59,758 nt of DNA from an uncultured Dehalococcoidales bacterium (GTDB lineage: Bacteria; Chloroflexota; Dehalococcoidia; GIF9; AB-539-J10), in NCBI GenBank assembly GCA_964545665.1, contig CAZJGF010000001.1, positions 1 to 59,758 on the forward strand. Direction: 5' to 3'. A program made the translations under genes and the position numbers. Numbering within the stretch: the stretch's first letter is position 1; every line of letters starts with the position of its first letter. This document shows positions 18,500 to 57,757 of the stretch, in pieces. A model generated the notes under the pieces. That model saw only the letters and a list, made by a program, of their open reading frames with translations, made no database searches and was not told the origin of the DNA.

Positions 18500-18527
18500 A
18501 AATCACGAATTAAGGAAGGAGATTGCT

Positions 18528-21945: not shown

Positions 21946-21957
21946 GGAGGTTTGATA

Positions 21958-25181: not shown

Positions 25182-25195
25182 AAAAGGAGGGGAAA

Positions 25196-25750: not shown

Positions 25751-25753
25751 GGT

Positions 25754-27004: not shown

Positions 27005-27107
27005 GACCGTTTGAGCAAAGCGAAGGAATCCCTGAGCTGTAAATAAGAGAGAAAGGTAGCCCTCGTCCATGCTATGCTTTGTCCTGGCGAGGGGCAGGAG
27101 GTTTGTT

Positions 27108-28472: not shown

Positions 28473-28475
28473 GAG

Positions 28476-28988: not shown

Positions 28989-29001
28989 GAAAGCGTAGTG
29001 A

Positions 29002-31694: not shown

Positions 31695-31701
31695 TTTGGC
31701 T

Positions 31702-33907: not shown

Positions 33908-33921
33908 CTTTGGAGGCTGGG

Positions 33922-37002: not shown

Positions 37003-37018
37003 GTTTGATTACGAGCAG

Positions 37019-41936: not shown

Positions 41937-42000
41937 AAAGGTGAGGGAAAGGAGTGAGCGGATTAGGCGATTATTAGAACCAGTCGCCGGAGTAAGGTAG

Positions 42001-42423: not shown

Positions 42424-42799
42424 TGACGACCCCGATTTGCAGGCAGCAGTGAAGAAGGTGCTTGAAAGTAAGTCCTACGAAGTGGCTGCTGCGCTCAACG
42501 GAGACGAAGGTTTGCGGAAGGTAGTGGATGAAAGGCCCGATCTAATCATTCTAGACGTAGTGATGCCAGGTAAGAGTGGATTCGAGGTTTGCAAAGAACT
42601 CAAGACTGACCCAAAATATTACTTCTTCTCTCACATCCCTGTGCTGATGCTAACCGTTTATCCTGACGACAGAGAAAAGATGCACCTCTCTATGCGAGAG
42701 GGGATGACGATGGAGGCGGAAGACTACCTGCACAAGCCATTTGATCCTGACGAACTGCTAAACCGAGTGGAGGAATTGCTAGAAAAGAAAGAAAACTAG
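42392..42799 (+). CDS. Single-domain response regulator (CheY-like)
   Basis: ILVIDDD ... DLIILDVVMPGKSG ... KPF receiver motifs. 135 aa. It overlaps the preceding gene. Confidence 0.85.
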   Translation: MQKQTKILVIDDDPDLQAAVKKVLESKSYEVAAALNGDEGLRKVVDERPDLIILDVVMPGKSGFEVCKELKTDPKYYFFSHIPVLMLTVYPDDREKMHLSMREGMTMEAEDYLHKPFDPDELLNRVEELLEKKEN

Positions 42800-44044: not shown

Positions 44045-45699
44045 AGATGGGCATCTTCCTATGCGATTGCGGGGGGAGTCTAAAGAACATAGATTTTCCC
44101 AAAATTAGCGGAGATTTAGAGAAACTTGAAGACGTTGCCTTTATAGACATAAGCCATAGCTTGTGCCTTGAAGAAGGAGAGAAGGCGATAACTTCCAGAA
44201 TCCTGAGTGAGAACATAAATAGAGTAGTAATCGCTGCTTGCTCACCGGAGTTACGTGAGCACAAATTTGTCAGACTTCTAGAAGGGCTTAGATTTAACCC
44301 CAGTCTTCTTTCCTTGGCAAACATCAGGGAACAATGTTCTTGGACTCGTGAAGGCGATGTCACTGAGAAGGCGACGGAACTTATAAGAATGGCTATGGGT
44401 AAAGCTCGGTTGCTTCAGCCTGTGGAAAGAGAGAGCGTTTCAGTAAACAAAGAAGTACTAGTGCTGGGCGGAGGATTCTCTGGGATGAAATCGGCTCTTG
44501 AGCTTTCCCGGCTTGGAATCAGGACAACCATAGTGGAAGGGAAGTCAACCTTGGGGGGCAAGCTTAAGGAGGTTGAGGGCTTCTACGGACTTAAAACAAG
44601 CCCGAAACAGATGCTTGACTCGATGATAACGGCGATAGAGAAAGATAATAATATCGAGGTTCTAACCTCTGCTGAAGTTACAAGGGTGCGAGGGGAGGTG
44701 GGGGATTTTGACATAACAATAAGAGGAGGGAGAAAAGAATTCTCCCTGAGCTTTGGCGCTATCATCTTTGCCACCGGATATAGAACTGAAATTTTGCCGC
44801 AAGACTTTGAGCTTAAACCCGGAGGTAATATCATCTCACAGCTAGACCTTGTTGAGATGCTGCGAGCTCCAGAGAAGTTGAAACGAAGACCTGAGACTAT
44901 AGGCTTTATTCTCGATGTCTGTGATGAGAATTCACGCCTCCCTACCCTCTCCAGTCTCAACAATGCCTTGGCGGTTAGAGAGAAACTAGGAAGTGAAGTC
45001 TACGTGTTCTGTAAGAATCTGAAGGTAGATAGTGAAGGGGCGGAGGAGCTTTACCGAGAGGCGCGCAATCGCGGAGTAGTGTTTTTGAAATTTGACGAAC
45101 CACCACAGATATACTGTGAGGATGGCCGAGTGGCCATCGAGGCAAAGGATGTTCTTTTGGGTGAAGAGGTGGTGCTCCCCTGTGACCTCTTGGTGGCTGA
45201 GGAAAGAGCTTTGCCCCCAGAAGGAACCAAAGGCTTAAGCTCTATGCTAAATATAGGGACCGACTTCCAAGGCTTCTATCAGGATGAAAATGTGCATCTT
45301 TATTCAGCGGCATCAGCTAGGAAAGGGATGTTTTTTGTCGGAGGCTGCCGCGGGAATCTGGATCTCCGTCGAGCTTTGACCGATATTGCATCTGCGGTGA
45401 TGGGCAGCTATTCGCTTTTGGCTCTGGGGGAGGCAGTGGTCGAGGTGGAGAAAGTAAGGGTCGACCCGGAAAAGTGTCGGGCGTGCCTGACCTGCATCCG
45501 TGTATGTCCCCACGGTGCAGTTCAGTTAGTTCGGTTGGATACTGAGAAGGAGGTAGCTCAGATTTACGATCTGGCTTGTGATGGATGTGGCATCTGCTCT
45601 GCCTTATGTCCGGCAAAGGCAATAGATTTTAAAGGCTATGCCGATGAACAAATCCTTGCTGAAGTTGAAGCAATGGGAGAAACTAATGAACGTAGATAA
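44035..45699 (+). CDS. HdrA-like protein (second half of a split tandem HdrA)
   Basis: It starts with the HdrA-type MGIFLCDCGG domain, then a second Rossmann motif VLVLGGGFSGMKSALELS, and ends with 2x[4Fe-4S] (CRACLTCIRVCPHG, CDGCGICSALCPAKA). It is collinear with residues ~917-1480 of the protein at 48169 but lacks a CVGSR/YCS.VCC block. ATG 44047 is an alternative start. Confidence 0.75.
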   Translation: MQVKMGIFLCDCGGSLKNIDFPKISGDLEKLEDVAFIDISHSLCLEEGEKAITSRILSENINRVVIAACSPELREHKFVRLLEGLRFNPSLLSLANIREQCSWTREGDVTEKATELIRMAMGKARLLQPVERESVSVNKEVLVLGGGFSGMKSALELSRLGIRTTIVEGKSTLGGKLKEVEGFYGLKTSPKQMLDSMITAIEKDNNIEVLTSAEVTRVRGEVGDFDITIRGGRKEFSLSFGAIIFATGYRTEILPQDFELKPGGNIISQLDLVEMLRAPEKLKRRPETIGFILDVCDENSRLPTLSSLNNALAVREKLGSEVYVFCKNLKVDSEGAEELYREARNRGVVFLKFDEPPQIYCEDGRVAIEAKDVLLGEEVVLPCDLLVAEERALPPEGTKGLSSMLNIGTDFQGFYQDENVHLYSAASARKGMFFVGGCRGNLDLRRALTDIASAVMGSYSLLALGEAVVEVEKVRVDPEKCRACLTCIRVCPHGAVQLVRLDTEKEVAQIYDLACDGCGICSALCPAKAIDFKGYADEQILAEVEAMGETNERR

Positions 45700-46075
45700 T
45701 AACAAGATTGTTGCTTTTTGCTGTGCGAACTCAGCTTATCAGGCAGCGGACAAGGCGGGAAAGATGAGGCTTTGTTATCCAGATAATGTCAGGATCATTC
45801 GAGTCCCTTGTGCTGGAAGGGTGGATGTTGTTCATATTCTTAAAGCCTTTGAGAAAGGCGCCGCTGGGGTACTGGTGATGGGTTGTCAGGAGGGTGCCTG
45901 CCAGCATCTTACAGGCAACACTCGAGCGAAGGAAAGGCTAAAGTATGCCGGCGATTTGCTCAAAGAAGTAGGAATAGATAGAGAGCGAGTTAAAATGGTC
46001 AATCTTGCCCCAGACATGGCTCAAAAGTTCATCTGTGAGATTGAGGTGATGATGGAGAAGATAAAGGAGGCGTGA
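45686..46075 (+). CDS. mvhD: MvhD/FlpD-like [2Fe-2S] electron-transfer protein (copy 1)
   Basis: KIVAFCCANSAYQAAD ... IIRVPCAGRV ... GVLVMGCQEGACQH, the typical MvhD Cys pattern. ATG 45686 is preferred to the upstream track start, which overlaps hdrA. Confidence 0.85.
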   Translation: MNVDNNKIVAFCCANSAYQAADKAGKMRLCYPDNVRIIRVPCAGRVDVVHILKAFEKGAAGVLVMGCQEGACQHLTGNTRAKERLKYAGDLLKEVGIDRERVKMVNLAPDMAQKFICEIEVMMEKIKEA

Positions 46076-46078: not shown

Positions 46079-46741
46079 ATGATAATTGCTGAAAGGAAGC
46101 CTTTCGAGGAAATCAAGAACATGATTGTTGGTTATAAGAGAATCCTGGTGGTAGGGTGCAGGACTTGTGTCACTATCTGCTGGGCTGGTGGGGAAAAGGA
46201 GGTGGGAATACTTTCCTCCCAACTGAGGCTCCAATCGAGCAGGAACGGAGATGAGCTTTCTATTTTGGAAGCCACTGTCGAAAGGCAGTGTGAAAAGGAG
46301 ATGGTGACCCAGGAACTTGGAGATAAGGTACAGGATATAGAGGCGATTCTCTCTATGGGCTGTGGAGTCGGGGTGCAGACCATAGCCGAGATATATGAAG
46401 AAAAGCCTGTTTTCCCGGCACTTAATACTACATTTGTAGGGATGCCTGAAAAGGAAGGGCTATGGATTGAGACGTGCGGAGCGTGCGGGGATTGCTTTTT
46501 GGACAGAACAGGGGGAATCTGCCCAGTTGTGCGCTGCGCCAAGGGGCTGCTCAATGGGCCTTGTGGCGGCACAAGAAGGGGTGGGAAGTGCGAGATAGAT
46601 CCAGAGAAAGACTGTGCGTGGGTTCTTATTTACCGAAGGCTGGAAAAGCAAGGCAGGCTTGACCTAATGAGGAAATACTACGAGGCTAAGAACTATAGGA
46701 AAGTGAAAAGACCTGGGAAAATCGAAGCCTTGGAAGCTTGA
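46079..46741 (+). CDS. metV: MetV (MTHFR C-terminal-domain protein, Cys-rich partner of acetogen MetF)
   Basis: CGACGDCFLDRTGGICPVVRCAKGLLNGPCGGTRRGGKCE...CAW is the characteristic MTHFR_C block. It lies directly upstream of metF. Confidence 0.8.
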   Translation: MIIAERKPFEEIKNMIVGYKRILVVGCRTCVTICWAGGEKEVGILSSQLRLQSSRNGDELSILEATVERQCEKEMVTQELGDKVQDIEAILSMGCGVGVQTIAEIYEEKPVFPALNTTFVGMPEKEGLWIETCGACGDCFLDRTGGICPVVRCAKGLLNGPCGGTRRGGKCEIDPEKDCAWVLIYRRLEKQGRLDLMRKYYEAKNYRKVKRPGKIEALEA

Positions 46742-46758
46742 ATCATAGGGGGTGGAAA

Positions 46759-47649
46759 ATGGCAAAGCCCTTTAGGGAAACGCTAAAAAAGAAGGATTTC
46801 ATTGTAACCGCCGAGGCGGGTCCAGTGAAAGGCTCCAATGTGACAAATATGATCGAGCATATTGAACTTCTTAAAGACAAGGTGGATGGCCTAAATGTAA
46901 CTGATAATCAAAGTGCTGTCATGAGGTATCCCTCGCTTGGGACTTGCCTTCTCGTCAAAGAGCATGGCGGAGAGCCAATTCTCCAAATCACATGCAGGGA
47001 CCGTAATCGCCTGGCAATTCAGGCAGATCTTCTTTTTGCTTACTCCAGAGGAATAGATAATGTCCTCTGTCTTACCGGCGATTCTGTGGATGTTGGTGAC
47101 CATAAGGAGGCAAAACCAGTTTTCGATCTCGACTCGGTCCAGCTGATTCATTTGGTTCATAGTTTGAATTCTGGAAAAGATATGGTGGGGAATGAACTCG
47201 ATGGGGGTGTTGATTACTGTATCGGTGCCTCTGCCACCCCTTCGGCAGATCCAATCGAACCTCAGCTTATTAAATTTGATAAGAAGCTAGATGCCGGGGT
47301 GGACTTTGTTCAAACCCAGGCTGTCTATGATCTGGATGAACTCAAAAGATTTATGGAACATACCCGTAGGATGGACGGAAAGGTCAAAATTCTGGCTGGC
47401 ATAGTGCTTCTTGTCGGGGCGAGAATGGCGATGTGGATGAATGACAATGTTCCTGGCATATTTGTTCCTCAGCACTTCATTGATGAGATGGCTGAGGCTC
47501 CAAAGGGCAAAGGAGTTTCTAGGGGGATAGAGATTGCTGGAAGGCTCGTACGACAGATAAAAAAGGAGAAAATCTGTGATGGGGTTCATATCATGGCTAT
47601 TGGAAGAGAGGAGAGGGTTCCTGACATTCTAGAGGCGGCCGGAATATGA
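46759..47649 (+). CDS. metF: Methylenetetrahydrofolate reductase (acetogen-type MetF), MetV-linked copy
   Basis: ITCRDRNRLAIQ, LCLTGD and FVQTQAVYD blocks. ATG 46759 follows GGGGGTGGA. Confidence 0.85.
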   Translation: MAKPFRETLKKKDFIVTAEAGPVKGSNVTNMIEHIELLKDKVDGLNVTDNQSAVMRYPSLGTCLLVKEHGGEPILQITCRDRNRLAIQADLLFAYSRGIDNVLCLTGDSVDVGDHKEAKPVFDLDSVQLIHLVHSLNSGKDMVGNELDGGVDYCIGASATPSADPIEPQLIKFDKKLDAGVDFVQTQAVYDLDELKRFMEHTRRMDGKVKILAGIVLLVGARMAMWMNDNVPGIFVPQHFIDEMAEAPKGKGVSRGIEIAGRLVRQIKKEKICDGVHIMAIGREERVPDILEAAGI

Positions 47650-47676: not shown

Positions 47677-48156
47677 ATGACTGTAGCGCTAAATGAGTTG
47701 GATTCCAAATTTAAATATGATGTGGCTGAAGAGCCCGGAGGAGAAAACATTAAGCTTTGTTTTGCCTGTGGTCTCTGCACCGCAAGCTGCCCAGTTGCGG
47801 ATATTGATCCGGAGTATAACCCTCGAAAGATAATTCATATGGTTCTCTTAGGGATGAGGGAGGCAGTGCTTTCTTCTAACTTTCCCTGGCTTTGCACTCA
47901 GTGCTATACATGTCAGGCTCACTGTCCTCAAAATGTAAACTTCTCTGATGTAATGAAGGCATTGAGGAGTATGGCGGTTAAGGAAGGATATGTCCATCCT
48001 TCCTTTGCCGATCAAATAAAGGAGATTGACACCTTCTCGCAAAAGCTACGTCATCAAATGGTGCTATCCATCGTGGCTAGGAAATCCGAAGAACTAAAGG
48101 CGGACGTAGAGAAACTTGCTAAGGAAGCACTGGAGAAGGCGAGAAAAGAAGTCTAG
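47677..48156 (+). CDS. hdrC: HdrC-like 2x[4Fe-4S] protein
   Basis: CFACGLCTASCPV ... CTQCYTCQAHCPQ, with the helical spacer typical of HdrC. 159 aa. Confidence 0.75.
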   Translation: MTVALNELDSKFKYDVAEEPGGENIKLCFACGLCTASCPVADIDPEYNPRKIIHMVLLGMREAVLSSNFPWLCTQCYTCQAHCPQNVNFSDVMKALRSMAVKEGYVHPSFADQIKEIDTFSQKLRHQMVLSIVARKSEELKADVEKLAKEALEKARKEV

Positions 48157-48168: not shown

Positions 48169-51100
48169 ATGGAATCTAAGAACAGCCTCGTAGGAGCGGC
48201 GCTAGTAGTTGGCGGAGGAATTGGAGGGATGCAGGCTGCGCTTGACCTTGCCGAGTCTGGGTATCACGTCTATTTGGTGGAGAAATCCCCGGCTATCGGT
48301 GGGGCAATGGCTCAGCTGGATAAGACCTTTCCCACCTTAGATTGTTCCATGTGTATTCTCTCTCCCAAACTCATTGAATGTGGAAGGCATCCCAACATAG
48401 AATTGCTTTCCTGCTCAGAACTTGTTGAAGTCAACGGGGAGCCGGGGGATTTCAAAGCCAAGGTCTTAAAGCATCCGAGGTATGTTGATGTTGCCAGGTG
48501 CACCGGGTGCGCTGAGTGTGCTGAAGTCTGTCCGGTAGAGCTTCCCAACGAGTTCGAACAGGATTTAGCTTCGAGGAAGGCCATATTCAGGCCATTCGCC
48601 CAAGCCTTTCCCAATGCCTTTGCCATCGAGAAGAGGGAGAGACCGCCATGCACTTTGACTTGTCCAGCAGGGATAAACATTCAAGGATACGTGGCTTTGA
48701 TCGCCAAGAGGAAATATAGAGAAGCGCTATCCCTGATCAGGGAGTGGGTTCCTATCCCAGGAGTACTGGGTAGGATTTGCCCTGCTCCCTGCGAGGAGAA
48801 ATGCAACCGCAAGCTCTTAGAAGAGCCTGTAGCAATTCGAGTCCTGAAGAGATTTGCCGCCGATATGGTTGAAGATGAATTGTCACCTCCCGAGATAGAG
48901 GAGAAAGAGGAAAGGGTTGCTATCATCGGCTCAGGGCCAGCAGGGCTTACCTGCGCCCATTACCTTCGTCGCGAAGGATATCAGGTTACTGTCTTTGAAG
49001 CCCTCCCTGTGGTTGGAGGAATGCTTTATGTAGGCATCCCTGAGTACCGTTTGCCTAAGAACGTTGTTGAGAAGGAGATTGAGAGTATCAAACGCCTGGG
49101 GATAGAGATAAAGACCAATACCCCTATTGGTGCAGAAATTGGCATTAAAGACCTTCTTGAACAAGGATATGAAGCCGTATTTATCAGTGTTGGAGCGCAT
49201 CGTAGTCAGCGACTTGGCGTTCCAGGCGAAAATGCAGAAAGGGTGATTCACGGTGTCGATTTCTTGAGAGATATTAATTTGGGGAAGGAAGTGAAGACGA
49301 AAGGGAAAGTAGTGATAATAGGAGGTGGAGACGTTGCCATAGATTCAGCCCGCTCTGTTCTTCGCTTGGGTGCCGATGAAGTCGTAGTCCTTTACAGGAG
49401 GACGAGAGTTGAAATGCCTGCCAGGGAGGAAGAGGTTAAAGCTGCCGAAGAGGAAGGGGTGAAGATAGAATATTTGGTCGCTCCTGTGGAGATCCTCTGC
49501 GAAAATGGTAAGGTTACCGGAGTAAAGTGTACTCGTATGCAGCTTGGGGAGCCCGACGTCACCGGGAGGAAGCGTCCTATACCCATACCGGGTTCCGAGT
49601 TTGACCTTAAGGTTGATATGGTAATTCCGGCAATCGGGCAGACGCCTGACCTCTCCTTTGTAGAAAACAGCGGGATAAACATCTCCAGCAGGGGCACTAT
49701 CCAAGTTGACCCAATGACTTTGGAAACAGGCTGTGAAGGAGTCTTTTCTGGAGGGGATTGCCAGACTGGGCCCTCTATTGCAGTTGAAGCTGTAGCCGCT
49801 GGTGCGCGGGCAGCAGAATCCATCATCAGATATATTAACCATCAAGACCTCAAAGAGGGAAGGACTGTAGAGAGGAAGCTCTCCGGTGTTTCTTTTATTC
49901 CTTTCGGTATGGCCAGGGAGTCAAGACAGAAGATGCCAACCATCCCTGTTGAGGAGAGGAAGGTAAGCTTTAAGGAGATAGAGCTTGGCTTCCCTGAAGA
50001 TATGGCCATTAGGGAGGCAAGTCGCTGCCTTGCCTGCGGAATTTGTTCTGAGTGTATGCAATGCGTCGCAGCTTGCAAAGCTAATGCTATTGATCACAAC
50101 ATGAGAGAAGAGATTGTACAACTGAATGTGGGCTCTGTGGTACTCTGTCCTGGATTTGATGAATTCGACCCTGGCCCTCTCTTCAATTACGGATACAGGA
50201 GATATTCCAACGTGGTAACTAGCATAGAATTTGAGAGGATGCTCTCGGCATCGGGGCCATATCAAGGAGAGCTCAAGAGGCCTTCAGATGGGAGGCCGCC
50301 TCAAAGGATAGCCTGGATTCAATGCGTTGGCTCAAGAGATGAAAGCCTAAATCGAGGATATTGCTCTTCTGTGTGCTGCACCTACGCTGTGAAACAAGCT
50401 ATTATCGCCAAGGAACATGTCCCTCTTGAACTGGAAGAGACTATCTTCTTCATGGATATACGAACTCAAGGGAAGGACTTTGATAAGTTCTACAGGCGGG
50501 GAGAGGAAGAGGGAATAGAATTTATGAGGGCTAGGGTCTATAGGATTGAGGAATCAGATGGCACCGGTAGTTTACTTCTCAAGTATGTAGGCGAGGATGA
50601 TAAGCCAAGCACTCGTGAGTTTGACCTGGTTGTCCTATCTGTAGGCCTTCAGCCTTCCTCGACAGCGATAGAACTAGCCAAGAAGCTTGGCATCCAGCTC
50701 AATAAATATGGATTTTGTCACACGAATACATTTTCTCCAGTGGAGACTTCGAGGCCGGGAATCTTTGCCGCTGGCGCCTTTCAAGGCCCGAAGGATATTC
50801 CTGAGACTGTGATGCAGGCAAGCGGAGCAGCGGGAAGCGTTTCCGCTTTGCTTGCTCCGGCACGGAATACCCTGATCAAGAAGAAGCAATATCCGCCGGA
50901 AAGAGACGTCTCTGGGGAAGAACCCAGGATTGGTGTTTTCATATGCCACTGTGGCATCAATATTGGGGGAGTGGTCAATGTGCCTGACGTCACTGACTAC
51001 GCTAAGACACTTCCTGGCGTAGTTTATGCTGAAGACAACCTCTACACTTGCTCTCAGGACACTCAGGAAAGAATAAAAGCAATGGCAAAGGAACATGGTC

Positions 51101-52611
51101 TAAATCGGGTGGTGGTAGCATCGTGCACCCCTCGGACACATGAGCCTTTGTTCCAGGAGACTATCAGAGAAGCCGGCTTGAATAAATACCTTTTTGAGTT
51201 TGCCAATATCCGTGACCAATGCTCCTGGGTTCACATGCATGAGCCAGAGAAGGCTACTGAGAAGGCGAAGGATTTGCTAGGAATGGCAGTGGCAAAGGTA
51301 AGGCTGAAAAAACCACTTAAGCCTCTGTCTCTCCCAGTTAATCACTCTGCTTTGGTTATTGGGGGAGGAATAGCAGGGATGGTAAGTGCCTTAAACTTGG
51401 CAGAGCAAGGTTTCGAAGTCCATCTTATTGAGAGGAGCAGCGAGCTCGGTGGTATGGCAAGGAAAATACATCATACTATTGATAATGGAGATGTTCAGAC
51501 TTTTCTCGGCGATTTAATTAAGAAGGTTAAGGAACATACTAAGGTTAGGGTCTATTACAATACTTGGATTGTAGATGCCTATGGATATGTGGGTCACTTC
51601 ACCACCGAGATAATGAGATATCGAGGCAGGGTAGTAGAGAAGATAGAGCATGGCGCGACTATCATTGCCACCGGGGCCCAGGAGTATAAGCCGAACGGTG
51701 AGTACCTCTATGGAAGAGACCCAAGGGTGCTTACCCAACTTGAACTTGAAGATGAGATAGCCAGAGAGAGTCCGGACATTATCAACTGCGATAACGTAGT
51801 GATGATTCAGTGTGTGGGCTCTCGCAATGGTCAACGACCTTATTGCAGCCGGGTGTGCTGCAATCAAGCAATTAAGAATGCTCTAAAGCTTAAGGAAATA
51901 AGGCCTGAAATGAACATTTACATCCTCTATCGGGATATGAGGACGTATGGATTCTATGAGGAACATTACCGGGAGGCAAGACAACAAGGGGTTGTCTTCC
52001 TCCGCTATGAGCCAGAAGATAAGCCTCGGGTGAGTCAAGAGAGAAAGAGTGGCCAGCTTTTGATAAGGGTTGAGAGCAAGGATCCGGTGCTGGGGGAGAA
52101 AGTAGCTATTGATGCTGATATTCTTGCCCTATCTGTGCCCATGGTTCCCCCGGAGGAAGCAAGAGAGCTTGCAATGCTCTACAAGGTGCCTTTAAACGAG
52201 GATGGCTTCTTCCTAGAGGCACATGTAAAGCTTCGTCCGGTGGATTTCGCCACCGATGGGATCTTTGTCTGCGGGCTTGCCCATGCCCCTAAGTCGATAG
52301 AGGAAAGCATCGCTCAGGCTAAAGCAGCCGCCTCTCGAGCAACCACTATATTAGCCAAGGATACCGTTACGGCTGAGGGCATTGTTGCCTCCGTAAACGA
52401 AAATATTTGCTCAGGTTGTGGCATTTGTGAGGCTCTCTGCCCTTATGGGGCTATCACTATTGATAGGGATAAGAATGTAGCCAAAGTTAACGAAGCTTTG
52501 TGTAAGGGTTGTGGCACTTGCTGTGCCGCTTGCCCTTCAGGAGCTGCCCAACAAAGGAGTTTTACCTCGGAGCAGATTTCAGCCATGCTGGATGCTATTT
52601 TGGAGGTTTAG
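48169..52611 (+). CDS. Giant HdrA-GltD-HdrA fusion flavoprotein (HdrL-like)
   Basis: 1480-aa uninterrupted ORF. Order of parts: HdrA N-part (VVGGGIGGMQAALDLA, LDKTFPTLDCSMC, CTGCAECAEVCP); GltD-like insert at ~48640-49860 (CPAGINIQGY, ICPAPCEEKCNR, IIGSGPAGLTCAHYL, GGMLYVGIPEYRLP, IIGGGDVAIDSAR, GVFSGGDCQTGP); rest of HdrA (CLACGICSECMQC, WIQCVGSRDE..YCSSVCC); the IGVFICHCG domain; a second HdrA unit (VIGGGIAGMVSALNLA, MIQCVGSRNG..YCSRVCC); and a terminal CSGCGICEALCP / CKGCGTCCAACP. Confidence 0.9.
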   Translation: MESKNSLVGAALVVGGGIGGMQAALDLAESGYHVYLVEKSPAIGGAMAQLDKTFPTLDCSMCILSPKLIECGRHPNIELLSCSELVEVNGEPGDFKAKVLKHPRYVDVARCTGCAECAEVCPVELPNEFEQDLASRKAIFRPFAQAFPNAFAIEKRERPPCTLTCPAGINIQGYVALIAKRKYREALSLIREWVPIPGVLGRICPAPCEEKCNRKLLEEPVAIRVLKRFAADMVEDELSPPEIEEKEERVAIIGSGPAGLTCAHYLRREGYQVTVFEALPVVGGMLYVGIPEYRLPKNVVEKEIESIKRLGIEIKTNTPIGAEIGIKDLLEQGYEAVFISVGAHRSQRLGVPGENAERVIHGVDFLRDINLGKEVKTKGKVVIIGGGDVAIDSARSVLRLGADEVVVLYRRTRVEMPAREEEVKAAEEEGVKIEYLVAPVEILCENGKVTGVKCTRMQLGEPDVTGRKRPIPIPGSEFDLKVDMVIPAIGQTPDLSFVENSGINISSRGTIQVDPMTLETGCEGVFSGGDCQTGPSIAVEAVAAGARAAESIIRYINHQDLKEGRTVERKLSGVSFIPFGMARESRQKMPTIPVEERKVSFKEIELGFPEDMAIREASRCLACGICSECMQCVAACKANAIDHNMREEIVQLNVGSVVLCPGFDEFDPGPLFNYGYRRYSNVVTSIEFERMLSASGPYQGELKRPSDGRPPQRIAWIQCVGSRDESLNRGYCSSVCCTYAVKQAIIAKEHVPLELEETIFFMDIRTQGKDFDKFYRRGEEEGIEFMRARVYRIEESDGTGSLLLKYVGEDDKPSTREFDLVVLSVGLQPSSTAIELAKKLGIQLNKYGFCHTNTFSPVETSRPGIFAAGAFQGPKDIPETVMQASGAAGSVSALLAPARNTLIKKKQYPPERDVSGEEPRIGVFICHCGINIGGVVNVPDVTDYAKTLPGVVYAEDNLYTCSQDTQERIKAMAKEHGLNRVVVASCTPRTHEPLFQETIREAGLNKYLFEFANIRDQCSWVHMHEPEKATEKAKDLLGMAVAKVRLKKPLKPLSLPVNHSALVIGGGIAGMVSALNLAEQGFEVHLIERSSELGGMARKIHHTIDNGDVQTFLGDLIKKVKEHTKVRVYYNTWIVDAYGYVGHFTTEIMRYRGRVVEKIEHGATIIATGAQEYKPNGEYLYGRDPRVLTQLELEDEIARESPDIINCDNVVMIQCVGSRNGQRPYCSRVCCNQAIKNALKLKEIRPEMNIYILYRDMRTYGFYEEHYREARQQGVVFLRYEPEDKPRVSQERKSGQLLIRVESKDPVLGEKVAIDADILALSVPMVPPEEARELAMLYKVPLNEDGFFLEAHVKLRPVDFATDGIFVCGLAHAPKSIEESIAQAKAAASRATTILAKDTVTAEGIVASVNENICSGCGICEALCPYGAITIDRDKNVAKVNEALCKGCGTCCAACPSGAAQQRSFTSEQISAMLDAILEV

Positions 52612-52612: not shown

Positions 52613-53032
52613 ATGGCCAAGAATGAATTTGAGCCGAAAATACTAGGTTTCTGTTGTAACTGGTGTTCGTATGCTGGTGCTGACCTTGCTGGTGTCTCGC
52701 GGTTCCAATATCCCCCCAATATAAGGATAATAAGGGTGATGTGCTCCGGCCGGGTAAGCCCTGCTTTTGTTCTGAAGGCATTAGCGGTTGGATTCGATGG
52801 TGTGCTCATCGCTGGCTGCCATCCAGGGGATTGCCATTATATATCCGGCAACTATAAAACGAGAAGAAGGGCGGAATTCACAAAAAGGCTTTTGGAGCAG
52901 TTTGGAATGGAACCAGAAAGACTGAGATTGGAGTGGATCTCAGCATCTGAGGGAATGAAATTTGCTGAGGTGGTGAGAGACTTCACCAACAAAATAAAGG
53001 AGTTAGGACCAAATTCACTGAAAAGGAGCTGA
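52613..53032 (+). CDS. mvhD: MvhD/FlpD-like protein (copy 2)
   Basis: KILGFCCNWCSYAGAD ... IIRVMCSGRV ... GVLIAGCHPGDCHY. ATG 52613 lies 2 nt after the stop of the giant gene and 7 nt after GGAGG. Confidence 0.85.
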   Translation: MAKNEFEPKILGFCCNWCSYAGADLAGVSRFQYPPNIRIIRVMCSGRVSPAFVLKALAVGFDGVLIAGCHPGDCHYISGNYKTRRRAEFTKRLLEQFGMEPERLRLEWISASEGMKFAEVVRDFTNKIKELGPNSLKRS

Positions 53033-53036: not shown

Positions 53037-53689
53037 ATGGCAAGAAGATGGAAAATAGAACTAGCCTTTTATTGGGCAGCCACCTGTGGAGGCTGTGATG
53101 TGGCAACTTTGGACATTGGAGAGAAAATCCTCGATGTGGTGGACATTGCCGATATTGTCCTTTGGCCTGTGGCGATGGACTTCAAGTACAGAGACGTAGA
53201 GAAGATGGAGCCAAAAAGCATAGATCTGTGTTTGTGTAACGGCGCGGTAAGAAGTCCGGAGCATGAGGAAATAGCCAAGATGCTAAGGGAAAAACCAAAG
53301 GTGATGGTAGCATTTGGAAGTTGCGCCTGCTTCGCGGGATACCGGGGCTTGGGAATGTAGCAAATAAAGAGCAAATATTTGATGTGGCATACCAAGAGAC
53401 ACCTTCCACAGTGAACCCAGATTCTATTGTGCCCAAGACAGAATGTGAAGTGGCGGGAGAGATTTTGACACTTCCTGAGTTGTACGACACGGTGAAGACA
53501 CTGGATCAAACAGTGGATGTTGATTATTACGTGCTTGGTTGGCCCCCGGTTGTAGACGGTATAAACGACGCTGTGGGAATAATCGCCAAGTACGCAGAAA
53601 CCGGGGAGCTGCCTCCAAAGGGAACAGTTGTCGCTTTCGACAAGACTGTATGTGATGAGTGTCCACCCAGCTTCACTTCTGTGCCTTAG
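53037..53689 (+). pseudogene. mvhG: [NiFe]-hydrogenase small subunit (MvhG-like): frameshifted, mutated and 3'-truncated
   Basis: Frame 0 reads ATCGGCDVATLD ... AFGSCACFAG and then stops. The expected continuation GIPGLGNVAN... is in the -1 frame from the GGG run at 53336-53338. The conserved PGCPP is LGWPP (TGG at 53540-53542). The ORF ends soon after VCDECP, so the C-terminal cluster-binding part is missing. Confidence 0.7.
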
Positions 53690-54807
53690 GAGCCCCGGAC
53701 TTTATTGTAGGCCCAAGAGCTGAAGCAGCGAAGAGAAACATAATCGGAGTAGTAGAAAAAGCAGGCACGGAATTGGGGCTGGCGGTGATACATGCTAGGG
53801 GATATGCACAGAGAATACAGGAGATAGTGGGAGGAAAGGCAACACATCCAGTATGTGGCCTGCCCGGGGGTATGTCAAAGGCTCTCTCGAATGAGGAGAG
53901 GGATGAGATAGAGGGTGAGGCCAAGAAGCTAGTTGATTTTGGCAAGAAAAGCCTTGAGATATTTGATGACCTTGTGTTGAAGAACAAAGAATATGTGGAT
54001 TTGATCACAGGTGATACTTATTACCATGAGACGTATTACATGGGCATGGTAGATGAAAATGAGAAAGTAAATTTCTATGAAGGAAAAATAAAGGTGGTGG
54101 ATCCGGATGGAAAGGAATATGCTAGATTTGATGCCAAGGACTACTTGGACTATATAAGCGAAGCAGTGGAGCCTTGGTCGTACCTAAAGTTTCCTTATCT
54201 AAAAGGGGTTGGATGGAAAGGGCTCGTAGATGGGAAGGAGAGTGGCATTTATAGACTGAATTCACTGGCAAGGCTGAATGTTGCCAGTGGCATGGCTACT
54301 CCTAGAGCACAAGAAGCATACACGAGAATGTATGACTTCTTCGGTAAAAAGCCAGTCCATAGCACCCTTGCGTTCCACTGGGCCCGCCTCATAGAGAATC
54401 TATATGCTGCTGAGAGATGCTTGGAGCTCATTCAAGACCCGGAGACAAGTTCTCAAGATATAAGAGGCGACTTAGGAGAGCCTGGCGAGGGGCTAGGTTG
54501 CGTAGAAGCTCCTCGTGTTACACTCTTCCATCACTACTGGGCAGATGAAAAAGGAATAACCAAGAAAGTTAACCTAATAGTCGCCACAGCTCAGAATAAC
54601 GGCCCGATGTGTATGTCAATTAAGAGAGCGGCGCAGAGCTTAATAAAGAATTGGAAAGTAGAAGAAGGCTTACTAAATATGGTAGAAATGGCTTTTAGGG
54701 CTTACGATCCTTGCCTTGCATGCGCAACTCATACGCTTCTAGGACAGGTGCCCCTAAAAATCGTCATAGTTGGCCCAGACAGAAAGGAGTTGCAAAGGCT
54801 AGGTTGA
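53659..54807 (+). pseudogene. mvhA: [NiFe]-hydrogenase large subunit (MvhA-like), 5'-truncated
   Basis: It reads from LHFCALGAPDFIVG to the C-terminal Ni-ligand motif DPCLACATH. The first ~110 aa, including the N-terminal R.CG.C Ni-binding motif, are absent. The frame is closed immediately upstream by TGA TGA (53653-53658). Confidence 0.7.
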
Positions 54808-54940: not shown

Positions 54941-57757
54941 TCAAGACGCTAATGTGATCTCTCTCATCTCGACCGCGTCATCTGCCTCAGCCATAACCTC
55001 AGCCGCTCTACCCGCTGCTCCTGAGGCCTGAGTTACAGAATCTGGGATATCCCGCGGGCTGTGAACATAGCCGCAAGCAAAGATGCCGCGCTTTGTGGTA
55101 TCTAGCGGTTGCAGCAATTTATTTGGAATCTTCACGAAGCCATTTTCATCTAACTCTATGCCTAAGATTTCTGCCAGTTCCTCGCTAATTTGAGGAATCA
55201 TCGCTTGGGCAAGAACCACCAGTTCTGCCTCAAGGCTCTTTATTTCCCCGGTGGTGGTGTCCTCGTACGAAATAACAGGGTTATCGTTCTTGGGGTTGAC
55301 TTCGATCCTGCCGGGACGTCCCCTGATATATGTTGCGTTGTACTCCTTCTTAGCCCTAGCGATATATTCCTGAAACCTCTTACCCACAGCCCTCATGTCC
55401 ATATAGAGAATTGTGGACTTCGTTCCTGGCTCATGTTCATATGCCATCATGGCTTCCTTGGTGGCATGCATGCAGCAGACGCTGGAACAATATGCTTTGT
55501 TCCTAAGATCGCGGGAGCCAACGCATTGGATGAAGGCTATATTGTGAGGGATTTTCCCATCTGAAGGGCGCCTAAGTTCTCCCATAGTAGGTCCTGACGC
55601 TGCAGTTAGCCTCTCGCATTCCATTGCTGTAATAACGTTCTTTATCTTTCCATAGCCATATTCTTCAATGCTTGAGATATCATGAAAATTGAGTCCTGTG
55701 GCGAGGATTATTGCTCCTACATCGAGGCGAATATGCTCATCCTGCATGTGATAATCAATCGCATTTGCCTCACACCGTTTCTCACATTCGTGACATTCGA
55801 TGCACCCTTCTATCTGCCCAGCAAGGCAGCGAGAAGCCTCCTCCACAGCTTCTTCTGGAGTGTAGCCCAAAGTCACCTCACCAAAGCCTCTCATCCTCTC
55901 CTCCACAGGCTCCTTTTCCATCTCGACTCGCTTTTTGAACGGAAAGCGTTTTTGCCTGTCCGCTACCTCCTCCTCGGAAAGCTTCTCCGGCTTCCTTTCC
56001 TCCTCAGACTCAATGGGTTTACCTTGCAAATACAGGTCTATGGAGCGAGCTGCCCTGTTACCTGCTGCTATGGCATCGATAACGAAAGCAGGACCTGTAA
56101 CTACATCCCCGCCGGCAAATACTCCCTCGATGTTAGTTGCCCCGGTATTAGGATCAATTTCTATTGTGCCTCTGTTGGAGAGTGATACGCCAAGCTTCGC
56201 GGCAAACTCTGTTTTCGGATTTTGACCAAGGGCAGTGATTACTGTGTCCACTGGAGCAGAAAACTCAGAGCCTTCGATAGGAATAGGTCGGGGACGCCCG
56301 CTCGCATCCAACTCCCCGAGTTCCATTCTCATACACTCCACCCTGGCGATTCTCCCATCGTCCCGGCAAAAGCGGGTTGGGGTAGTCAGGAAATCAATCT
56401 CTATCCCCTCCTCCTCGGCTGCCTTTACCTCTTCCGCCGAGGCTGGCATTTCGGCGCGGGAACGGCGGTACACAATGTTCACCTCTTCGGCACCAAGGCG
56501 CTTTGCCAGTCGAGCGCAGTCAATAGCTGTGTTCCCCCCACCAATTACTGCTACTTTTTTACCTACCTTCACCTTCTCCCTAAGGTTTACAGCACGAAGA
56601 AATCCTATTCCCTCGAACACCCCGGAAAGGTTTTCCCCCTCCACTCTGAGTCGCGTTCCGCTGGGAGCTCCGGTAGCGAGGAAAAGGGCATCATAACCTT
56701 TGTTTATTTCTTCAAGGGCAATATCCTTGCCAACTTCTACCCCTGTCCTTATTTCCACGCCAAGCTTTTGGATGTAACCTATCTCCTTGCGCACAATCTC
56801 CTTAGGAAGGCGATATTCAGGAATGCCATAGTGGAGCATTCCCCCAGGCTCAGGGAGAGCCTCGAAAACAGTCACCTGGTACCCCTTAAGGGCAAGGTCA
56901 TTAGCAGCAGCAAGACCTGCAGGCCCTGAGCCTACGATTGCTACCTTCTTGTCCCTTTTTGTAATAGCTGGAACTTCAAGCTTGTCAATATCCACTTGAT
57001 CTGCAGCGAACCTCTTTAAGTCGCGGATGGCTATAGGCTCATCAATTTGACCACGATTGCAGGCTTCCTCGCAGGGAGCGTAGCAAACTCGGCCGCAGAC
57101 AGCAGGGAGAGGATTTGTATCTCTTATGAGCTTGTAAGCTTCCTGGAACTTCCCTTCGGCTATGAGCTTAACATACCCGAGCACATTGGTATGAGCAGGG
57201 CAGGCATCCTTGCAAGCTGCTTTACATGGCCTCTCCTCTATCTTAGCGACGGCATACTTCTTAGGGACGGCTTGAGGGAAGGGAATGAAGATGGCTTTTC
57301 TCTCGCCAAGCCCCTGGTCAAATTCGCTCGGCATGATAACCGGGCATCCCTCCGCGCAAAGACCACAGCCAGTGCATTTATCCCAATCAACATAAGGTGC
57401 TCTCCTCTTCACCTTAGCCTGGAAACTTCCAACCTCTCCTGAGACTTCTTCGACTTGGGAATAGGTCAAAAGTTCTATATTTGGATGCTGGCTTGCTTCG
57501 ATCATCTTGGGGGCTAAAATACACATAGCACAATCGTTAGTAGGAAAGGTCTTATCTAGCTGTGCCATCCTCCCTCCGATGCTGGGCGTCTTTTCCACCA
57601 AATACACCTTAAACCCCATATTAGCCAGATCGAGAGAAGCTTGAATCCCAGCTATACCCCCCCCGATTACCAACATTGAGTTATTCGTGGTCTCACCCCC
57701 TTTGTAATTCAGAATGTTTTCCTGTCTTACCAGTTTTCGTGGCTCAGCGTACACCAC
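54941..57757 (-). CDS. HdrA::GltD fusion flavoprotein (single HdrA unit with a GltD-like insert)
   Basis: 938-aa ORF collinear with the first ~900 aa of the giant protein at 48169: IGGGIAGIQASLDLA, LDKTFPTNDCAMC, CTGCGLCAEGCP, then the insert at ~56017-57235 (CPAHTNVLGY, VCYAPCEEACNR, IVGSGPAGLAAANDL, GGMLHYGIPEYRLP, VIGGGNTAIDCAR, GVFAGGDVVTGP), then FIQCVGSRDL..YCSSVCC. The start is uncertain (GTG 57757 or ATG 57676). Confidence 0.85.
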   Translation of the reverse strand: MVYAEPRKLVRQENILNYKGGETTNNSMLVIGGGIAGIQASLDLANMGFKVYLVEKTPSIGGRMAQLDKTFPTNDCAMCILAPKMIEASQHPNIELLTYSQVEEVSGEVGSFQAKVKRRAPYVDWDKCTGCGLCAEGCPVIMPSEFDQGLGERKAIFIPFPQAVPKKYAVAKIEERPCKAACKDACPAHTNVLGYVKLIAEGKFQEAYKLIRDTNPLPAVCGRVCYAPCEEACNRGQIDEPIAIRDLKRFAADQVDIDKLEVPAITKRDKKVAIVGSGPAGLAAANDLALKGYQVTVFEALPEPGGMLHYGIPEYRLPKEIVRKEIGYIQKLGVEIRTGVEVGKDIALEEINKGYDALFLATGAPSGTRLRVEGENLSGVFEGIGFLRAVNLREKVKVGKKVAVIGGGNTAIDCARLAKRLGAEEVNIVYRRSRAEMPASAEEVKAAEEEGIEIDFLTTPTRFCRDDGRIARVECMRMELGELDASGRPRPIPIEGSEFSAPVDTVITALGQNPKTEFAAKLGVSLSNRGTIEIDPNTGATNIEGVFAGGDVVTGPAFVIDAIAAGNRAARSIDLYLQGKPIESEEERKPEKLSEEEVADRQKRFPFKKRVEMEKEPVEERMRGFGEVTLGYTPEEAVEEASRCLAGQIEGCIECHECEKRCEANAIDYHMQDEHIRLDVGAIILATGLNFHDISSIEEYGYGKIKNVITAMECERLTAASGPTMGELRRPSDGKIPHNIAFIQCVGSRDLRNKAYCSSVCCMHATKEAMMAYEHEPGTKSTILYMDMRAVGKRFQEYIARAKKEYNATYIRGRPGRIEVNPKNDNPVISYEDTTTGEIKSLEAELVVLAQAMIPQISEELAEILGIELDENGFVKIPNKLLQPLDTTKRGIFACGYVHSPRDIPDSVTQASGAAGRAAEVMAEADDAVEMREITLAS

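Follow-up and report, generated by a model that had tools for sequence, protein, structure and literature searches.

The 59.8-kb window analysed here (the whole stretch of DNA, 59,758 nucleotides from an uncultured Dehalococcoidales bacterium) encodes a large NAD(P)H-binding flavoprotein of the "HdrA/HdrL" kind that is already known from Moorella and from sulfate reducers. Its sequence shows two HdrA units in tandem, each missing parts that the other retains, and we consider it likely that the protein is the electron-input subunit of a "type IV", Moorella-type (heterodisulfide-reductase-type) methylene-tetrahydrofolate (methylene-THF) reductase of the Wood-Ljungdahl pathway. For this subunit the Moorella literature uses the name HdrA, and that on sulfate reducers HdrL.

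A single uninterrupted gene

48169..52611, + strand: HdrL / Moorella-type "HdrA" open reading frame, 1480 aa, stop codon TAG at 52609-52611, with full-length homologues

As the preliminary description stated, the frame is uninterrupted; it runs from an ATG to the TAG, with no in-frame TGA or TAA across its 1480 codons. We found nothing to support the idea that so long a frame arose by chimeric assembly or as a fused pseudogene, although the nearby mvhG and mvhA genes do carry a frameshift and a deletion, which shows that sequence decay or misassembly occurs close to hdrL. Against it stand a 90%-identity cluster of five sequences, each of 1480 aa and four of them JGI/IMG entries on other contigs, more than 100 clusters of 1466-1523 aa that align colinearly, and homologues of 58-89% identity from independent assemblies that are likewise full length and colinear. 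The protein is carried by at least 80 GTDB species, cultured Desulfotomaculum, Desulfoscipio and Pelotomaculum among them, GC content (0.45-0.51) is uniform over the proposed junctions, and all cofactor ligands are conserved. A joining of separate genes, raised earlier as what would undo the single-chain description, is thus refuted for practical purposes and its probability negligible.

Two HdrA units with complementary losses

A phmmer comparison with the HdrA of 5ODC returned four colinear stretches that delimit the two units and the insertion point of a GltD-like module:

48169..48636, + strand: unit 1, first part (residues 1-156); residues 9-156 align with 144-291 of 5ODC_A
48637..50043, + strand: GltD/NfnB/StnC-like module (residues 157-625), from profile and structure-sequence matches
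50044..50916, + strand: unit 1, continued (residues 626-916); residues 626-843 align with HdrA 293-511
50917..51318, + strand: unit 2 N-terminal (MvhD-like) [4Fe-4S] domain (residues 917-1050); residues 917-1083 align with HdrA 2-168 (226.7 bits)
51319..52359, + strand: unit 2 FAD domain (residues 1051-1397), with GGGIAG 1065-1070 and E1194/K1236
52360..52608, + strand: unit 2 C-terminal 2x[4Fe-4S] ferredoxin domain (C1414-C1424, C1445-C1455); residues 1289-1475 align with HdrA 461-647; matches to Pfam Fer4 families

The first part of unit 1 holds the start of a thioredoxin-reductase-like FAD domain (GGGIGG 15-20), Cys59 and Cys62, which correspond to HdrA Cys194 and Cys197 (Cys62 codon at 48352-48354), and, at C111-C121, the first of two cluster motifs that make up the inserted ferredoxin domain. 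The second motif of that domain (C626-C636) and the remaining FAD domain follow after the GltD module, including E689/K742 and the FAD-domain cluster (CVGSR 719-723 ...YCSSVCC, CSSVCC 732-737). Unit 1 has neither an N-terminal FeS domain nor a C-terminal ferredoxin domain, and a motif scan found no Cys motif at residues 850-926. Unit 2 (residues 917-1480) has both of these FeS domains, the N-terminal one with invariant C926, C928, C961, C986 and C1018, and a FAD-domain cluster of its own (CVGSR 1215-1219 ...YCSRVCC, CSRVCC 1226-1231), and its FAD domain lacks a Cys197 equivalent (residues 1097-1110 read ARKIHHTIDNGDVQ) and the inserted ferredoxin domain. In methanogen HdrA, the C-terminal ferredoxin domain is the MvhD docking side.

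The complementary loss recurs in all 78 homologues (58-89% identity) used for conservation analysis. The preliminary description was therefore right about two HdrA units but not about their completeness, and its "IGVFICHCG linker domain" is instead the start of the N-terminal [4Fe-4S] domain of unit 2 (CHCG at 926-929). Its three CxxCxxCxxxCP pairs reduce to four CxxCxxCxxxC motifs in two pairs, the first interrupted by GltD (111-121 and 626-636), the other contiguous (1414-1424 and 1445-1455), while its three flavin or nucleotide sites become four dinucleotide sites, three of the FAD type and one of the NAD(P)H type.

The same 78 homologues keep all predicted cluster ligands as well as Cys59 and Cys62, and the E/K flavin signature is conserved in unit 1 (E689/K742, 78/78) and in unit 2 (E1194 in 76/78, K1236 in 68/78). 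In 23 of 80 species loci, the codon at precisely the position of Cys62 is TGA (Sec), which marks this residue as functionally critical; the present gene is, as had been noted, the Cys version.

The GltD-like module of the preliminary description is significant; it is of the NfnB/StnC type (FAD, NAD(P)H and 2x[4Fe-4S]) and interrupts the inserted ferredoxin domain of unit 1 between its two cluster motifs. NCBIfam model PRK12771 matches residues 152-658 with 566.8 bits (cut-off 516), and the closest structures are StnC-type chains in their NfnB-like domain (9BOV_A, E = 3e-141; 8OH5_C, 1e-118) and NfnB itself (4YLF_B, 1e-95 and 2e-97 in separate comparisons). In addition to the CxxCxxCxxxC motifs of HdrL, the module contributes its own non-classical two-cluster domain (Fer4_20; C161, C165, C204, C208, C212) and a permuted "RCLxC" segment (C620, C623), the N-terminal segment of NfnB aligning with HdrL 593-623. 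The FAD site is GSGPAG 254-259 and the NAD(P)H site GGGDVAID 385-392 with YRR 409-411. This YRR motif is common to StnC-type chains and NfnB and is also found in NADPH enzymes, while the Moorella protein is reported with NADH; we give the HdrL cofactor as NAD(P)H.

With the GltD module excised, the chain (1011 aa) was modelled with AlphaFold2 (mean pLDDT 86.9, pTM 0.89). The best structural match of the model is HdrA (TM 0.77 with 5ODC_A/5ODI_A, 0.96 with 8RWN_A), and its pTM suggests that the relative placement of the two units is confidently fixed. Together with the complementary loss of Cys197 and the N-terminal domain, this supports the earlier suggestion that they mimic the HdrA dimer within one chain. 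Homology with the solved MvhAGD-HdrABC structure suggests that the units fold against one another to give an obligate intramolecular heterodimer, an arrangement put forward earlier for fused HdrAs, the Moorella protein among them (PMC9012536). The N-terminal domain of unit 2 and Cys62 of unit 1 would then form one shared cluster, whereas the symmetric methanogen dimer has two.

Relation to the Moorella enzyme

The architecture of the 1487-aa HdrA of the Moorella thermoacetica HdrCBA-MvhD-MetVF methylene-THF reductase has been given residue by residue (PMC9430772), and compared by this published description it shares with HdrL an identical domain order and near-identical numbering (E696/K750, E1204/K1246, C-terminal HdrA from residue 922). 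The HdrA-GltD-HdrA single chain was correctly seen as HdrL-like. The preliminary description knew of no biochemical characterisation and implied novelty, but the Moorella protein oxidises NADH (PMC9430772), and an NADH:benzyl viologen activity of 190 U/mg is reported (PMC9430772, citing Mock 2014; PMC5861303). With reduced benzyl viologen as donor, the Moorella complex also reduces methylene-THF (PMC5861303); its third substrate is still unidentified (PMC13040438). Hdr-metVF clusters of marine Chloroflexi were reported in 2017 (PMC5736913).

Genomic neighbourhood

The genes around hdrL are the following:

42803-44044, + strand: hdrA' (413 aa, unit-1-like, no GltD), part of a split tandem HdrA
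44035-45699, + strand: hdrA'' (554 aa, unit-2-like with N-terminal domain), part of the same split tandem HdrA
45686..46075, + strand: MvhD copy a (PF02662; probable ATG at 45686 by start codon inspection)
46079..46741, + strand: MetV (MTHFR C-terminal-like FeS subunit, DUF5981; PF12225, E = 2.7e-35)
46738..47649, + strand: MetF (methylene-THF reductase catalytic subunit; PF02219, E = 1.4e-38)
47677..48156, + strand: HdrC-like 2x[4Fe-4S] protein (159 aa; Pfam Fer4_8/Fer4_17), ending 12 nt upstream of hdrL
52613..53032, + strand: MvhD copy b (139 aa; PF02662, E = 1.6e-58; GGAGG ribosome-binding site)
53037..54807, + strand: decayed MvhG/MvhA [NiFe]-hydrogenase genes (tblastn with the intact L001 proteins; partial Pfam matches)
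54941..57757, - strand: stand-alone 938-aa paralogue, "unit 1 + GltD" only (49.5% identity to HdrL residues 12-902)

The order hdrA'-hdrA''-mvhD-metV-metF-hdrC-hdrL-mvhD, here with gaps of -10 to +27 nt, is kept in relatives of 65-83% identity, and in the window all ten genes of the locus form a single co-oriented, closely spaced block. The neighbours are as claimed before (HdrC-like, metF and metV upstream, mvhD downstream), the second mvhD ATG lying 1 nt past the hdrL stop. The HdrC-like protein scores 91.8 bits against TIGR03290 HdrC, under the family cut-off. The window also holds a Wood-Ljungdahl island (FTHFS, AcsE, CdhABCDE, FdhA).

The locus has its own peculiarities. Neither the window nor any window-type locus encodes an HdrB/CCG-domain protein. 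A second tandem HdrA of the Sporomusa type is split into hdrA' and hdrA'' (42803..45699), a split kept in L001, L002, L004, L005, L064, L069, L085 and L086. Finally, the MvhGA hydrogenase is decayed, MvhG by a frameshift with residues 206-327 missing and MvhA by loss of residues 1-106, among them the RxCGxCxxxH Ni-binding motif.

Proposed role and alternatives

The link to metFV and mvhD suggested earlier is borne out by the shared operon and by a survey of 80 GTDB species loci, in which mvhD directly follows hdrL in 63/76. HdrL would serve as the large flavin/iron-sulfur electron-input subunit for methylene-THF reductase. The arm that feeds free ferredoxin in methanogens would here be hard-wired to NAD(P)(H) via the GltD flavin, and electrons may reach the MetF flavin, the presumed site of methylene-THF/methyl-THF interconversion, from the CxGSR...CC clusters by way of MetV and the HdrC-like protein. 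MvhD on the C-terminal ferredoxin domain would be a third electron port, and overall we infer that NAD(P)H and methylene-THF/methyl-THF are linked, by flavin-based bifurcation or confurcation, with a third redox partner that enters via MvhD. In some relatives this partner was probably H2 via MvhAG, the genes for which are decayed in the window. The complex cannot be identical to that of Moorella, which has HdrB.

The split hdrA'/hdrA'' pair with its own MvhD, directly upstream of metVF, could be the real MetVF partner. HdrC-HdrL-MvhD would then be a self-standing NAD(P)H-linked redox module, either an NAD(P)H:acceptor or an H2:NAD(P)+ bifurcating oxidoreductase, originally MvhAGD-HdrL. The gene order immediately before metV-metF fits this reading, as does the layout of Sporomusa ovata HdrA, with two TrxR-like domains and no GltD (PMC9430772). 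Moreover, many loci have hdrL without metVF: of the 46 with sufficient sequence on either side, 21 show no metVF within 3 kb of the gene. HdrL is also known from other metabolic settings, for example in the AFOR-rich cluster of L003, beside dsrABC in D. autotrophicum (PMC2702500) or as part of a sulfate-specific HdrABC/HdrL in S. fumaroxidans (PMC5947623). L001 has intact mvhG-mvhA genes after hdrL-mvhD, and in L011, L016, L017, L020 and L031 such genes are found next to the hdrL cluster. However, metV and metF lie at most 3 kb downstream of hdrL in 33/62 loci, directly after hdrL-mvhD with no HdrA in between, and the GltD-containing HdrA of Moorella co-purifies with MetFV (PMC5861303). The co-oriented ten-gene block also speaks against separate function, and the hydrogenase genes, decayed here, are absent from the closest relatives, so we regard a self-standing module as unlikely.

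Much less probable still is that HdrL is a subunit of a true heterodisulfide reductase of the CoB-CoM or DsrC type, in other words of an NAD(P)H-using Hdr that reduces thiol/disulfide substrates. Its top NCBIfam matches are indeed the HdrA2 and HdrA models (1007.6 and 748.2 bits), but both stay under the curated cut-offs of 1100 and 1400. HdrL was originally suggested to carry NADH electrons to sulfite/DsrC reduction (PMC2702500, PMC5947623), yet the catalytic HdrB/CCG subunit is missing from the window and from window-type loci, the Pfam-scanned ORFs of the window include no dsr or methanogenesis protein, and the context is that of the Wood-Ljungdahl pathway.

What is newly placed by our analysis is a known HdrL-type enzyme in the carbon-fixation gene island of a Dehalococcoidia bacterium, which makes it a new member of an already known enzyme class.

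An intact, selenium-free hdrL gene from a widespread family

The hdrL gene is a single open reading frame on the plus strand (48169-52611) with an ATG start, 1480 codons, a TAG stop and no in-frame TGA or TAA. Both this frame and the motifs reported for it in the preliminary description are present in the sequence: The protein, HdrL, has a cysteine content of 50 and carries GGGIGG (residues 15-20), GSGPAG (254-259), GGGIAG (1065-1070) and CHCG (926-929), two CVGSR...YCSxVCC blocks (719-737 and 1215-1231), and four CxxCxxCxxxC motifs beginning at residues 111, 626, 1414, and 1445. The same description had allowed for an assembly chimera of separate genes. This reading, like that of a pseudogene, is excluded by a flat GC content across the suspected junctions (0.45-0.51), by the 90%-identity cluster of HdrL (5 sequences of 1480 aa each, 4 of them from other contigs in JGI/IMG), and by independent homologues from many species that align from end to end, among them over 100 additional clusters with lengths of 1466-1523 aa and identities of 58-89%.

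When one genome of each GTDB species was scanned, at least 600 relatives were found, and the best 80 of them, which span HdrL residues ~1-1480, were analyzed as species loci (loci are numbered L001, L002, etc.). The closest among the matches listed comes from Dehalococcoidia (83% identity), and other hosts among the best 80 include Desulfobacterales, Syntrophobacterales, Bacillota, Acidobacteriota, Planctomycetes, Thermoplasmatota, and Promethearchaeota. Cultured carriers are found among Desulfotomaculum, Desulfoscipio, Desulforamulus, Pelotomaculum, and Sporotomaculum species, and their copies are variously labeled “FAD-dependent oxidoreductase”, “glutamate synthase beta chain”, or “selenate reductase YgfK”; the latter two are examples of how misleading the annotations of this family now are.

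That HdrL is a cysteine and not a selenocysteine version, as previously proposed, agrees with its lack of an in-frame TGA and is confirmed by its relatives, which place the selenocysteine site at the position of Cys62 and thereby flag this cysteine as a key residue. The codon is an in-frame stop in 23 of the 80 species loci (the best 80 of at least 600), with TGA shown in 22, and these loci belong mostly to Desulfobacterales, many of which have TGA here, and Syntrophobacterales (they include L012, L018, L019, and L028). In the same loci, neighboring mvhD and HdrC/HdrB-like genes are also broken by single in-frame stops, a sequence pattern that suggests a selenoprotein version of the whole module. 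Two of the three HdrL proteins of Desulfobacterium autotrophicum (HdrL1 and HdrL3) contain selenocysteine (PMC2702500).

Two half-equipped HdrA units in one chain

HdrL matches the crystallized methanogen HdrA (5ODC_A) with an overall E = 3.7e-216 in four colinear stretches, and Pfam and NCBIfam models likewise find HdrA-like sequence in four stretches of the chain.

Colinear stretches of HdrL and methanogen HdrA (5ODC_A)
HdrL 9-156: HdrA 144-291
HdrL 626-843: HdrA 293-511
HdrL 917-1083: HdrA 2-168
HdrL 1289-1475: HdrA 461-647

Unit 1 (residues 1-916) is an HdrA flavin domain that has neither the N-terminal FeS domain nor the C-terminal ferredoxin domain, and a GltD module of 470 residues (residues 157-625), entering between HdrA positions 291 and 293, splits its inserted ferredoxin domain precisely between the cluster motifs C111-C121 and C626-C636. 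Unit 2 (residues 917-1480) lacks the inserted ferredoxin domain, with no CxxCxxC motif in residues 1084-1288. In unit 1, a “DCSMC” motif holds Cys59 and Cys62, the equivalents of HdrA Cys194 and Cys197, which are kept in 78/78 homologues; the equivalent position in unit 2 has no cysteine, and the N-terminal domain is confined to unit 2. Since in the methanogen enzyme the N-terminal cluster of each protomer is completed by Cys197 of its partner (PMC9012536, summarizing 5ODC), the units of HdrL would be complementary halves of one asymmetric “dimer”. The earlier idea that two complete HdrA units mimic the HdrA dimer within one chain thus gains support, since one unit lacks Cys197 and the other the N-terminal domain, but the units are not complete, each being half-equipped.

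All cluster ligands, including Cys59 and Cys62, are invariant among the 78 homologues. The E/K residues that the literature treats as a flag for “bifurcating” HdrA flavin sites (PMC9430772) are likewise well kept, with E689 and K742 in 78/78, E1194 in 76/78, and K1236 in 68/78 homologues. Counted by ligands, HdrL is predicted to bind 3 FAD, 8 or 9 [4Fe-4S] clusters, and NAD(P)H at 1 site.

For structure prediction, the GltD module was excised (residues 1-156 + 626-1480, 1011 aa) and an alignment of full-length homologues was used. The resulting model has a mean pLDDT of 86.9 and a pTM of 0.89, and from such a value for a two-unit chain we infer that the packing of the predicted units is confidently defined. 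In Foldseek searches against single chains the top match was HdrA (5ODC/5ODI, TM 0.77 over 653 columns), and the core of 8RWN matched the model with a TM of 0.96.

The GltD module is recognized by PRK12771 (HdrL 152-658; 566.8 bits, above the cut-off of 516), by Fer4_20 (PF14691; 68.1 bits, cut-off 25.8), and by Pyr_redox_2 (PF07992; 220.6 bits). Its best matches are StnC-type NfnB-like domains (9BOV_A, 3e-141; 8OH5_C, 1e-118), followed by NfnB (4YLF_B, 2e-97), and it also aligns to 5JCA_L. In common with NfnB (4YLF_B, 5JCA_L) and the StnC/Bfu-type Nfn chains (8OH5_C, 9BOV_A) it has an FAD site, an NAD(P)H site with GGGxxAxD and YRR motifs (invariant among the homologues aligned), and a domain for two [4Fe-4S] clusters. 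The “RCLxC” motif that opens NfnB follows the flavin domains in the GltD module (C620/C623), as it does in StnC-type chains. Unlike NfnB, the module is not a separate subunit with an NfnA partner but sits as an insert within an HdrA ferredoxin domain. A call of NADH over NADPH from the YRR motif was dropped because the motif also occurs in NADPH-binding relatives; the Moorella orthologue reportedly uses NADH.

HdrL as a Moorella-type HdrA

The preliminary description knew of no biochemistry for such proteins. The main elements of its finding are already in the literature, and the enzyme of Moorella thermoacetica has been assayed (PMC9430772, PMC5861303). As far as the published accounts describe it, Moorella HdrA (1487 aa, 162.8 kDa) is part of an HdrCBA-MvhD-MetVF methylene-THF reductase (PMC9430772, PMC5861303, PMC13040438), contains a C-terminal HdrA from residue 922 and an N-terminal TrxR-like domain that is interrupted by GltD, and has E696/K750 and E1204/K1246 along with three FAD and one NAD(P)H site (PMC9430772). 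In these accounts, it oxidizes NADH with benzyl viologen at 190 U/mg (PMC9430772), and reduced viologen drives methylene-THF reduction by the complex (PMC5861303). Compared by published description, both proteins have the E/K signature in both flavin domains at nearly equal residue numbers. Based on this feature-for-feature match, we assign HdrL to the known family of Moorella-type HdrA, which in sulfate reducers is named HdrL (PMC2702500, PMC5947623). Among Bacillota, the closest sequence examined was L030, with 52% identity and the canonical order hdrCB-hdrL-mvhD-metVF; Moorella itself was absent from the best 120 matches of a search that started from the Desulfotruncus arcticus protein, where many cultured Bacillota were found.

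In sulfate reducers, HdrL of D. autotrophicum HRM2 and Sfum_0824 of Syntrophobacter fumaroxidans are described as large HdrA/glutamate-synthase fusions with an NADH-binding part, and mvhD always comes next (PMC2702500, PMC5947623). Our Desulfobacterales relatives align over their full length at 48-58% identity. The sulfate-reducer proteins occur in dsrABC/HdrABC contexts with a proposed sulfite/DsrC role, whereas the window has a cysteine form in a Wood-Ljungdahl context.

Methanogen HdrA (MvhAGD-HdrABC; 5ODC, 8RVU, 7BKB) shares its thioredoxin-reductase fold, FAD, and CxGSR...CC cluster with each HdrL unit, and each of its FeS domains (N-terminal, inserted, and C-terminal) has an equivalent in HdrL. 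However, it pairs two complete 650-aa chains in a symmetric homodimer and is not one chain of two half-equipped units, and its ferredoxin-exit domain is not interrupted by GltD. ANME archaea have both fused HdrA3/4 and NfnB-inserted HdrA9-11 (PMC9012536), the latter apparently single units by published description. Complementary loss of Cys197 and the N-terminal domain and the ~500-aa NfnB-like insertion are thus separate in ANME (PMC9012536) but combined in HdrL, where the order is also reversed, since HdrA3/4 carry the N-terminal domain on their N-terminal unit. The prior record comprises the NADH-binding fusion and its name, HdrL (2009), the enzyme from Moorella (Mock et al., 2014), Hdr-metVF clusters of marine Chloroflexi (2017), and the idea of a self-dimer by complementary loss together with the NfnB insertion (2022).

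An HdrB-less hdr-metVF operon

The genes around hdrL form a tight, co-oriented block of hdrA' (413 aa, unit-1-like), hdrA'' (554 aa, unit-2-like), mvhD, metV, metF, an hdrC-like gene, hdrL, and mvhD, which ends in remnants of mvhG and mvhA.

Features of the hdrL region
39750-40673, minus strand: second, lone metF without adjacent metV, divergent and beside a cNMP-binding histidine kinase
42803-45699, plus strand: hdrA'-hdrA'' (split tandem HdrA), overlapping by 10 nt in different frames
46079-47649, plus strand: metV-metF, upstream of hdrL
52613-53032, plus strand: mvhD, directly downstream of hdrL
53037-54807, plus strand: mvhG and mvhA [NiFe]-hydrogenase genes, decayed
54941-57757, minus strand: stand-alone “HdrA unit 1 + GltD” paralogue, 938 aa

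The neighbors are those claimed previously, with HdrC-like, MetF, and MetV genes upstream and mvhD beginning 1 nt past the hdrL stop. As in Moorella, mvhD (next downstream of hdrL) and metV-metF are adjacent, but the Moorella operon (hdrC-hdrB-hdrA-mvhD-metV-metF) includes HdrB, whereas the window has none and places metVF upstream of hdrC-hdrL. The window also differs by its second, split tandem HdrA, whose halves taken together match the HdrA type of Sporomusa ovata, and by its second MvhD. The gene order of the window recurs in L001, L002, L004, L005, L085, and L086 (65-83% identity), and L064 and L069 are similar, with no separately detected mvhD ahead of metV. Within the best 80 of at least 600 relatives, mvhD follows hdrL in 63/76 loci, and metV and metF lie at most 3 kb downstream of it, which is the Moorella order, in 33/62. 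Upstream of the operon (40806-42799) lie genes for a histidine kinase that senses cNMP and for two receiver proteins (single-domain response regulators), and this kinase-regulator set is kept at the same place in L002, L004, L085, and L086.

An HdrC-like protein is encoded beside hdrL, but phmmer with two HdrB (CCG) queries (from L030 and L010) found no HdrB in the window. None of its ORFs of at least 80 aa contains a CCG tripeptide, and loci with the window's operon order likewise encode no CCG-domain protein. When the search was extended with jackhmmer, HdrB-like ORFs turned up in at most 31 of 84 loci, and no window-type locus was among these; several Bacillota and Desulfobacterales loci encode HdrB or HdrCB fusions. 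Lack of HdrB is a trait of the complex and not of the HdrL protein family.

The hydrogenase genes are decayed: Residues 1-101 of MvhG are read in a different frame from residues 80-205, and 206-327 are missing, while MvhA begins at residue 107 of its intact homologue in L001, so that the first 106 aa and with them the N-terminal Ni ligands (RxCGxCxxxH) are lost. This could be true gene loss or an assembly error. L001 (72% HdrL identity) has both genes in intact form; the closest relatives, L085 and L086 (83%), have neither. Convergent with the operon and adjoining an MnhB-like gene, the 938-aa paralogue is 49.5% identical to HdrL residues 12-902, keeps the motif as DCAMC, and resembles the NfnB-inserted HdrA9-11 of ANME-1.

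Outside the hdrL region, the contig encodes an archaeal-type CODH/ACS in a Dehalococcoidia-like setting and a separate oxidoreductase module.

Features of the Wood-Ljungdahl region
17705-32520, plus strand: Wood-Ljungdahl island
22863-25181, plus strand: CdhA with ferredoxin insert
33452-33907, plus strand: NuoE-like gene
33910-37002, plus strand: NuoF::GltD fusion, 1030 aa
37019-39697, plus strand: formate dehydrogenase alpha with NuoG-like N-terminus

Besides CdhA, the island encodes CdhB epsilon, CdhC, CdhD/E, a NuoE/NuoF-like pair, FTHFS, a methyltransferase like AcsE, and three CooC-like ATPases. The gene at 15550-17058 (plus strand) encodes a protein of the MttB (trimethylamine methyltransferase-like) family, which is matched in two stretches. 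The genes at 33452-39697 (plus strand) resemble a Hyl/Stn module and include an additional GltD domain of the NADPH type; they may encode a bifurcating formate dehydrogenase linked to NAD(P)H/ferredoxin.

Possible function and alternatives

By analogy to the methanogen complex, HdrL may act as an intramolecular heterodimer with one shared cluster, in which NAD(P)(H) would be wired into the arm that serves as ferredoxin exit in methanogens, the CxGSR clusters would feed HdrC and through it MetV and MetF, and MvhD could dock onto the C-terminal ferredoxin domain as a third port.

Less probably, HdrL is not the partner of MetVF in the window. A Sporomusa-HdrA-like alternative, the split HdrA'/HdrA'' with its MvhD, sits directly ahead of metVF, and HdrL is found in other contexts, too (PMC2702500; PMC5947623). 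Against this stand the single tight operon of the window, the frequent hdrL-mvhD-metVF order of other loci, and the co-purification of these components in Moorella. A role as subunit of a true heterodisulfide reductase, as in methanogen HdrABC, is unlikely given that HdrL scores below the cut-offs of the canonical HdrA NCBIfam models (NF040770, 1007.6 vs 1100; NF041778, 748.2 vs 1400; NF041891, 723 vs 1300) and that HdrB was not found in the window, nor were dsr or methanogenesis genes among its ORFs scanned with Pfam. In place of the canonical single four-domain chain of ~650 aa that works with HdrB and HdrC, HdrL is a tandem protein with complementary domain loss, that is, two thioredoxin-reductase-like FAD units in one chain of the ~1450-1500 aa class, the first of them interrupted by a GltD/NfnB-like FAD, NAD(P)H, and FeS domain.

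A different catalytic setting is seen in L003 (7040-24491), where a 58%-identical HdrL lies outside any MetF context. There, hdrL-mvhD shares a stretch with genes for FeS proteins, an HdrC-like protein, a GltD-like protein, and a 1015-aa protein without annotation, and this stretch is flanked by two genes of the aldehyde:ferredoxin-oxidoreductase family; we take the ensemble to be reminiscent of Bam (class II benzoyl-CoA reductase) clusters. This locus points to reuse of the HdrL module with other catalytic partners.

For HdrL as part of the methylene-THF reductase, the furthest-reaching proposal, which we consider rather improbable, is an HdrB-less super-assembly of HdrA'A''-MvhD, MetVF, and HdrC-HdrL-MvhD. 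NAD(P)+ would sit on the low-potential (“ferredoxin”) arm and MetVF on the high-potential arm, MvhD would be the entry of a mid-potential donor, ancestrally H2 via MvhAG (intact in L001, decayed in the window), and electrons from H2 or another donor would be bifurcated to methylene-THF and NAD(P)+. If true, this would name the “missing third substrate” of the type IV (Hdr-type) methylene-THF reductases and explain why NADH alone fails to drive the Moorella enzyme. How energy is conserved by such reductases and what their third redox partner is have been debated since 2014 and were still described in 2026 as incompletely understood (PMC13040438).

The window holds no new kind of protein, but a clean, selenium-free, and well-conserved example from an uncultured Dehalococcoidia lineage, in an operon that is a local variant (HdrB-less, with two tandem-HdrA systems and a fossil hydrogenase) and would not surprise a specialist. 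Useful for the mechanism are the comparative facts that the NAD(P)H module always lies in the ferredoxin-exit domain, that the bridging Cys62 alternates with selenocysteine, that HdrB is dispensable across a whole clade, and that the hydrogenase on the MvhD side is attached in some relatives and lost in others.
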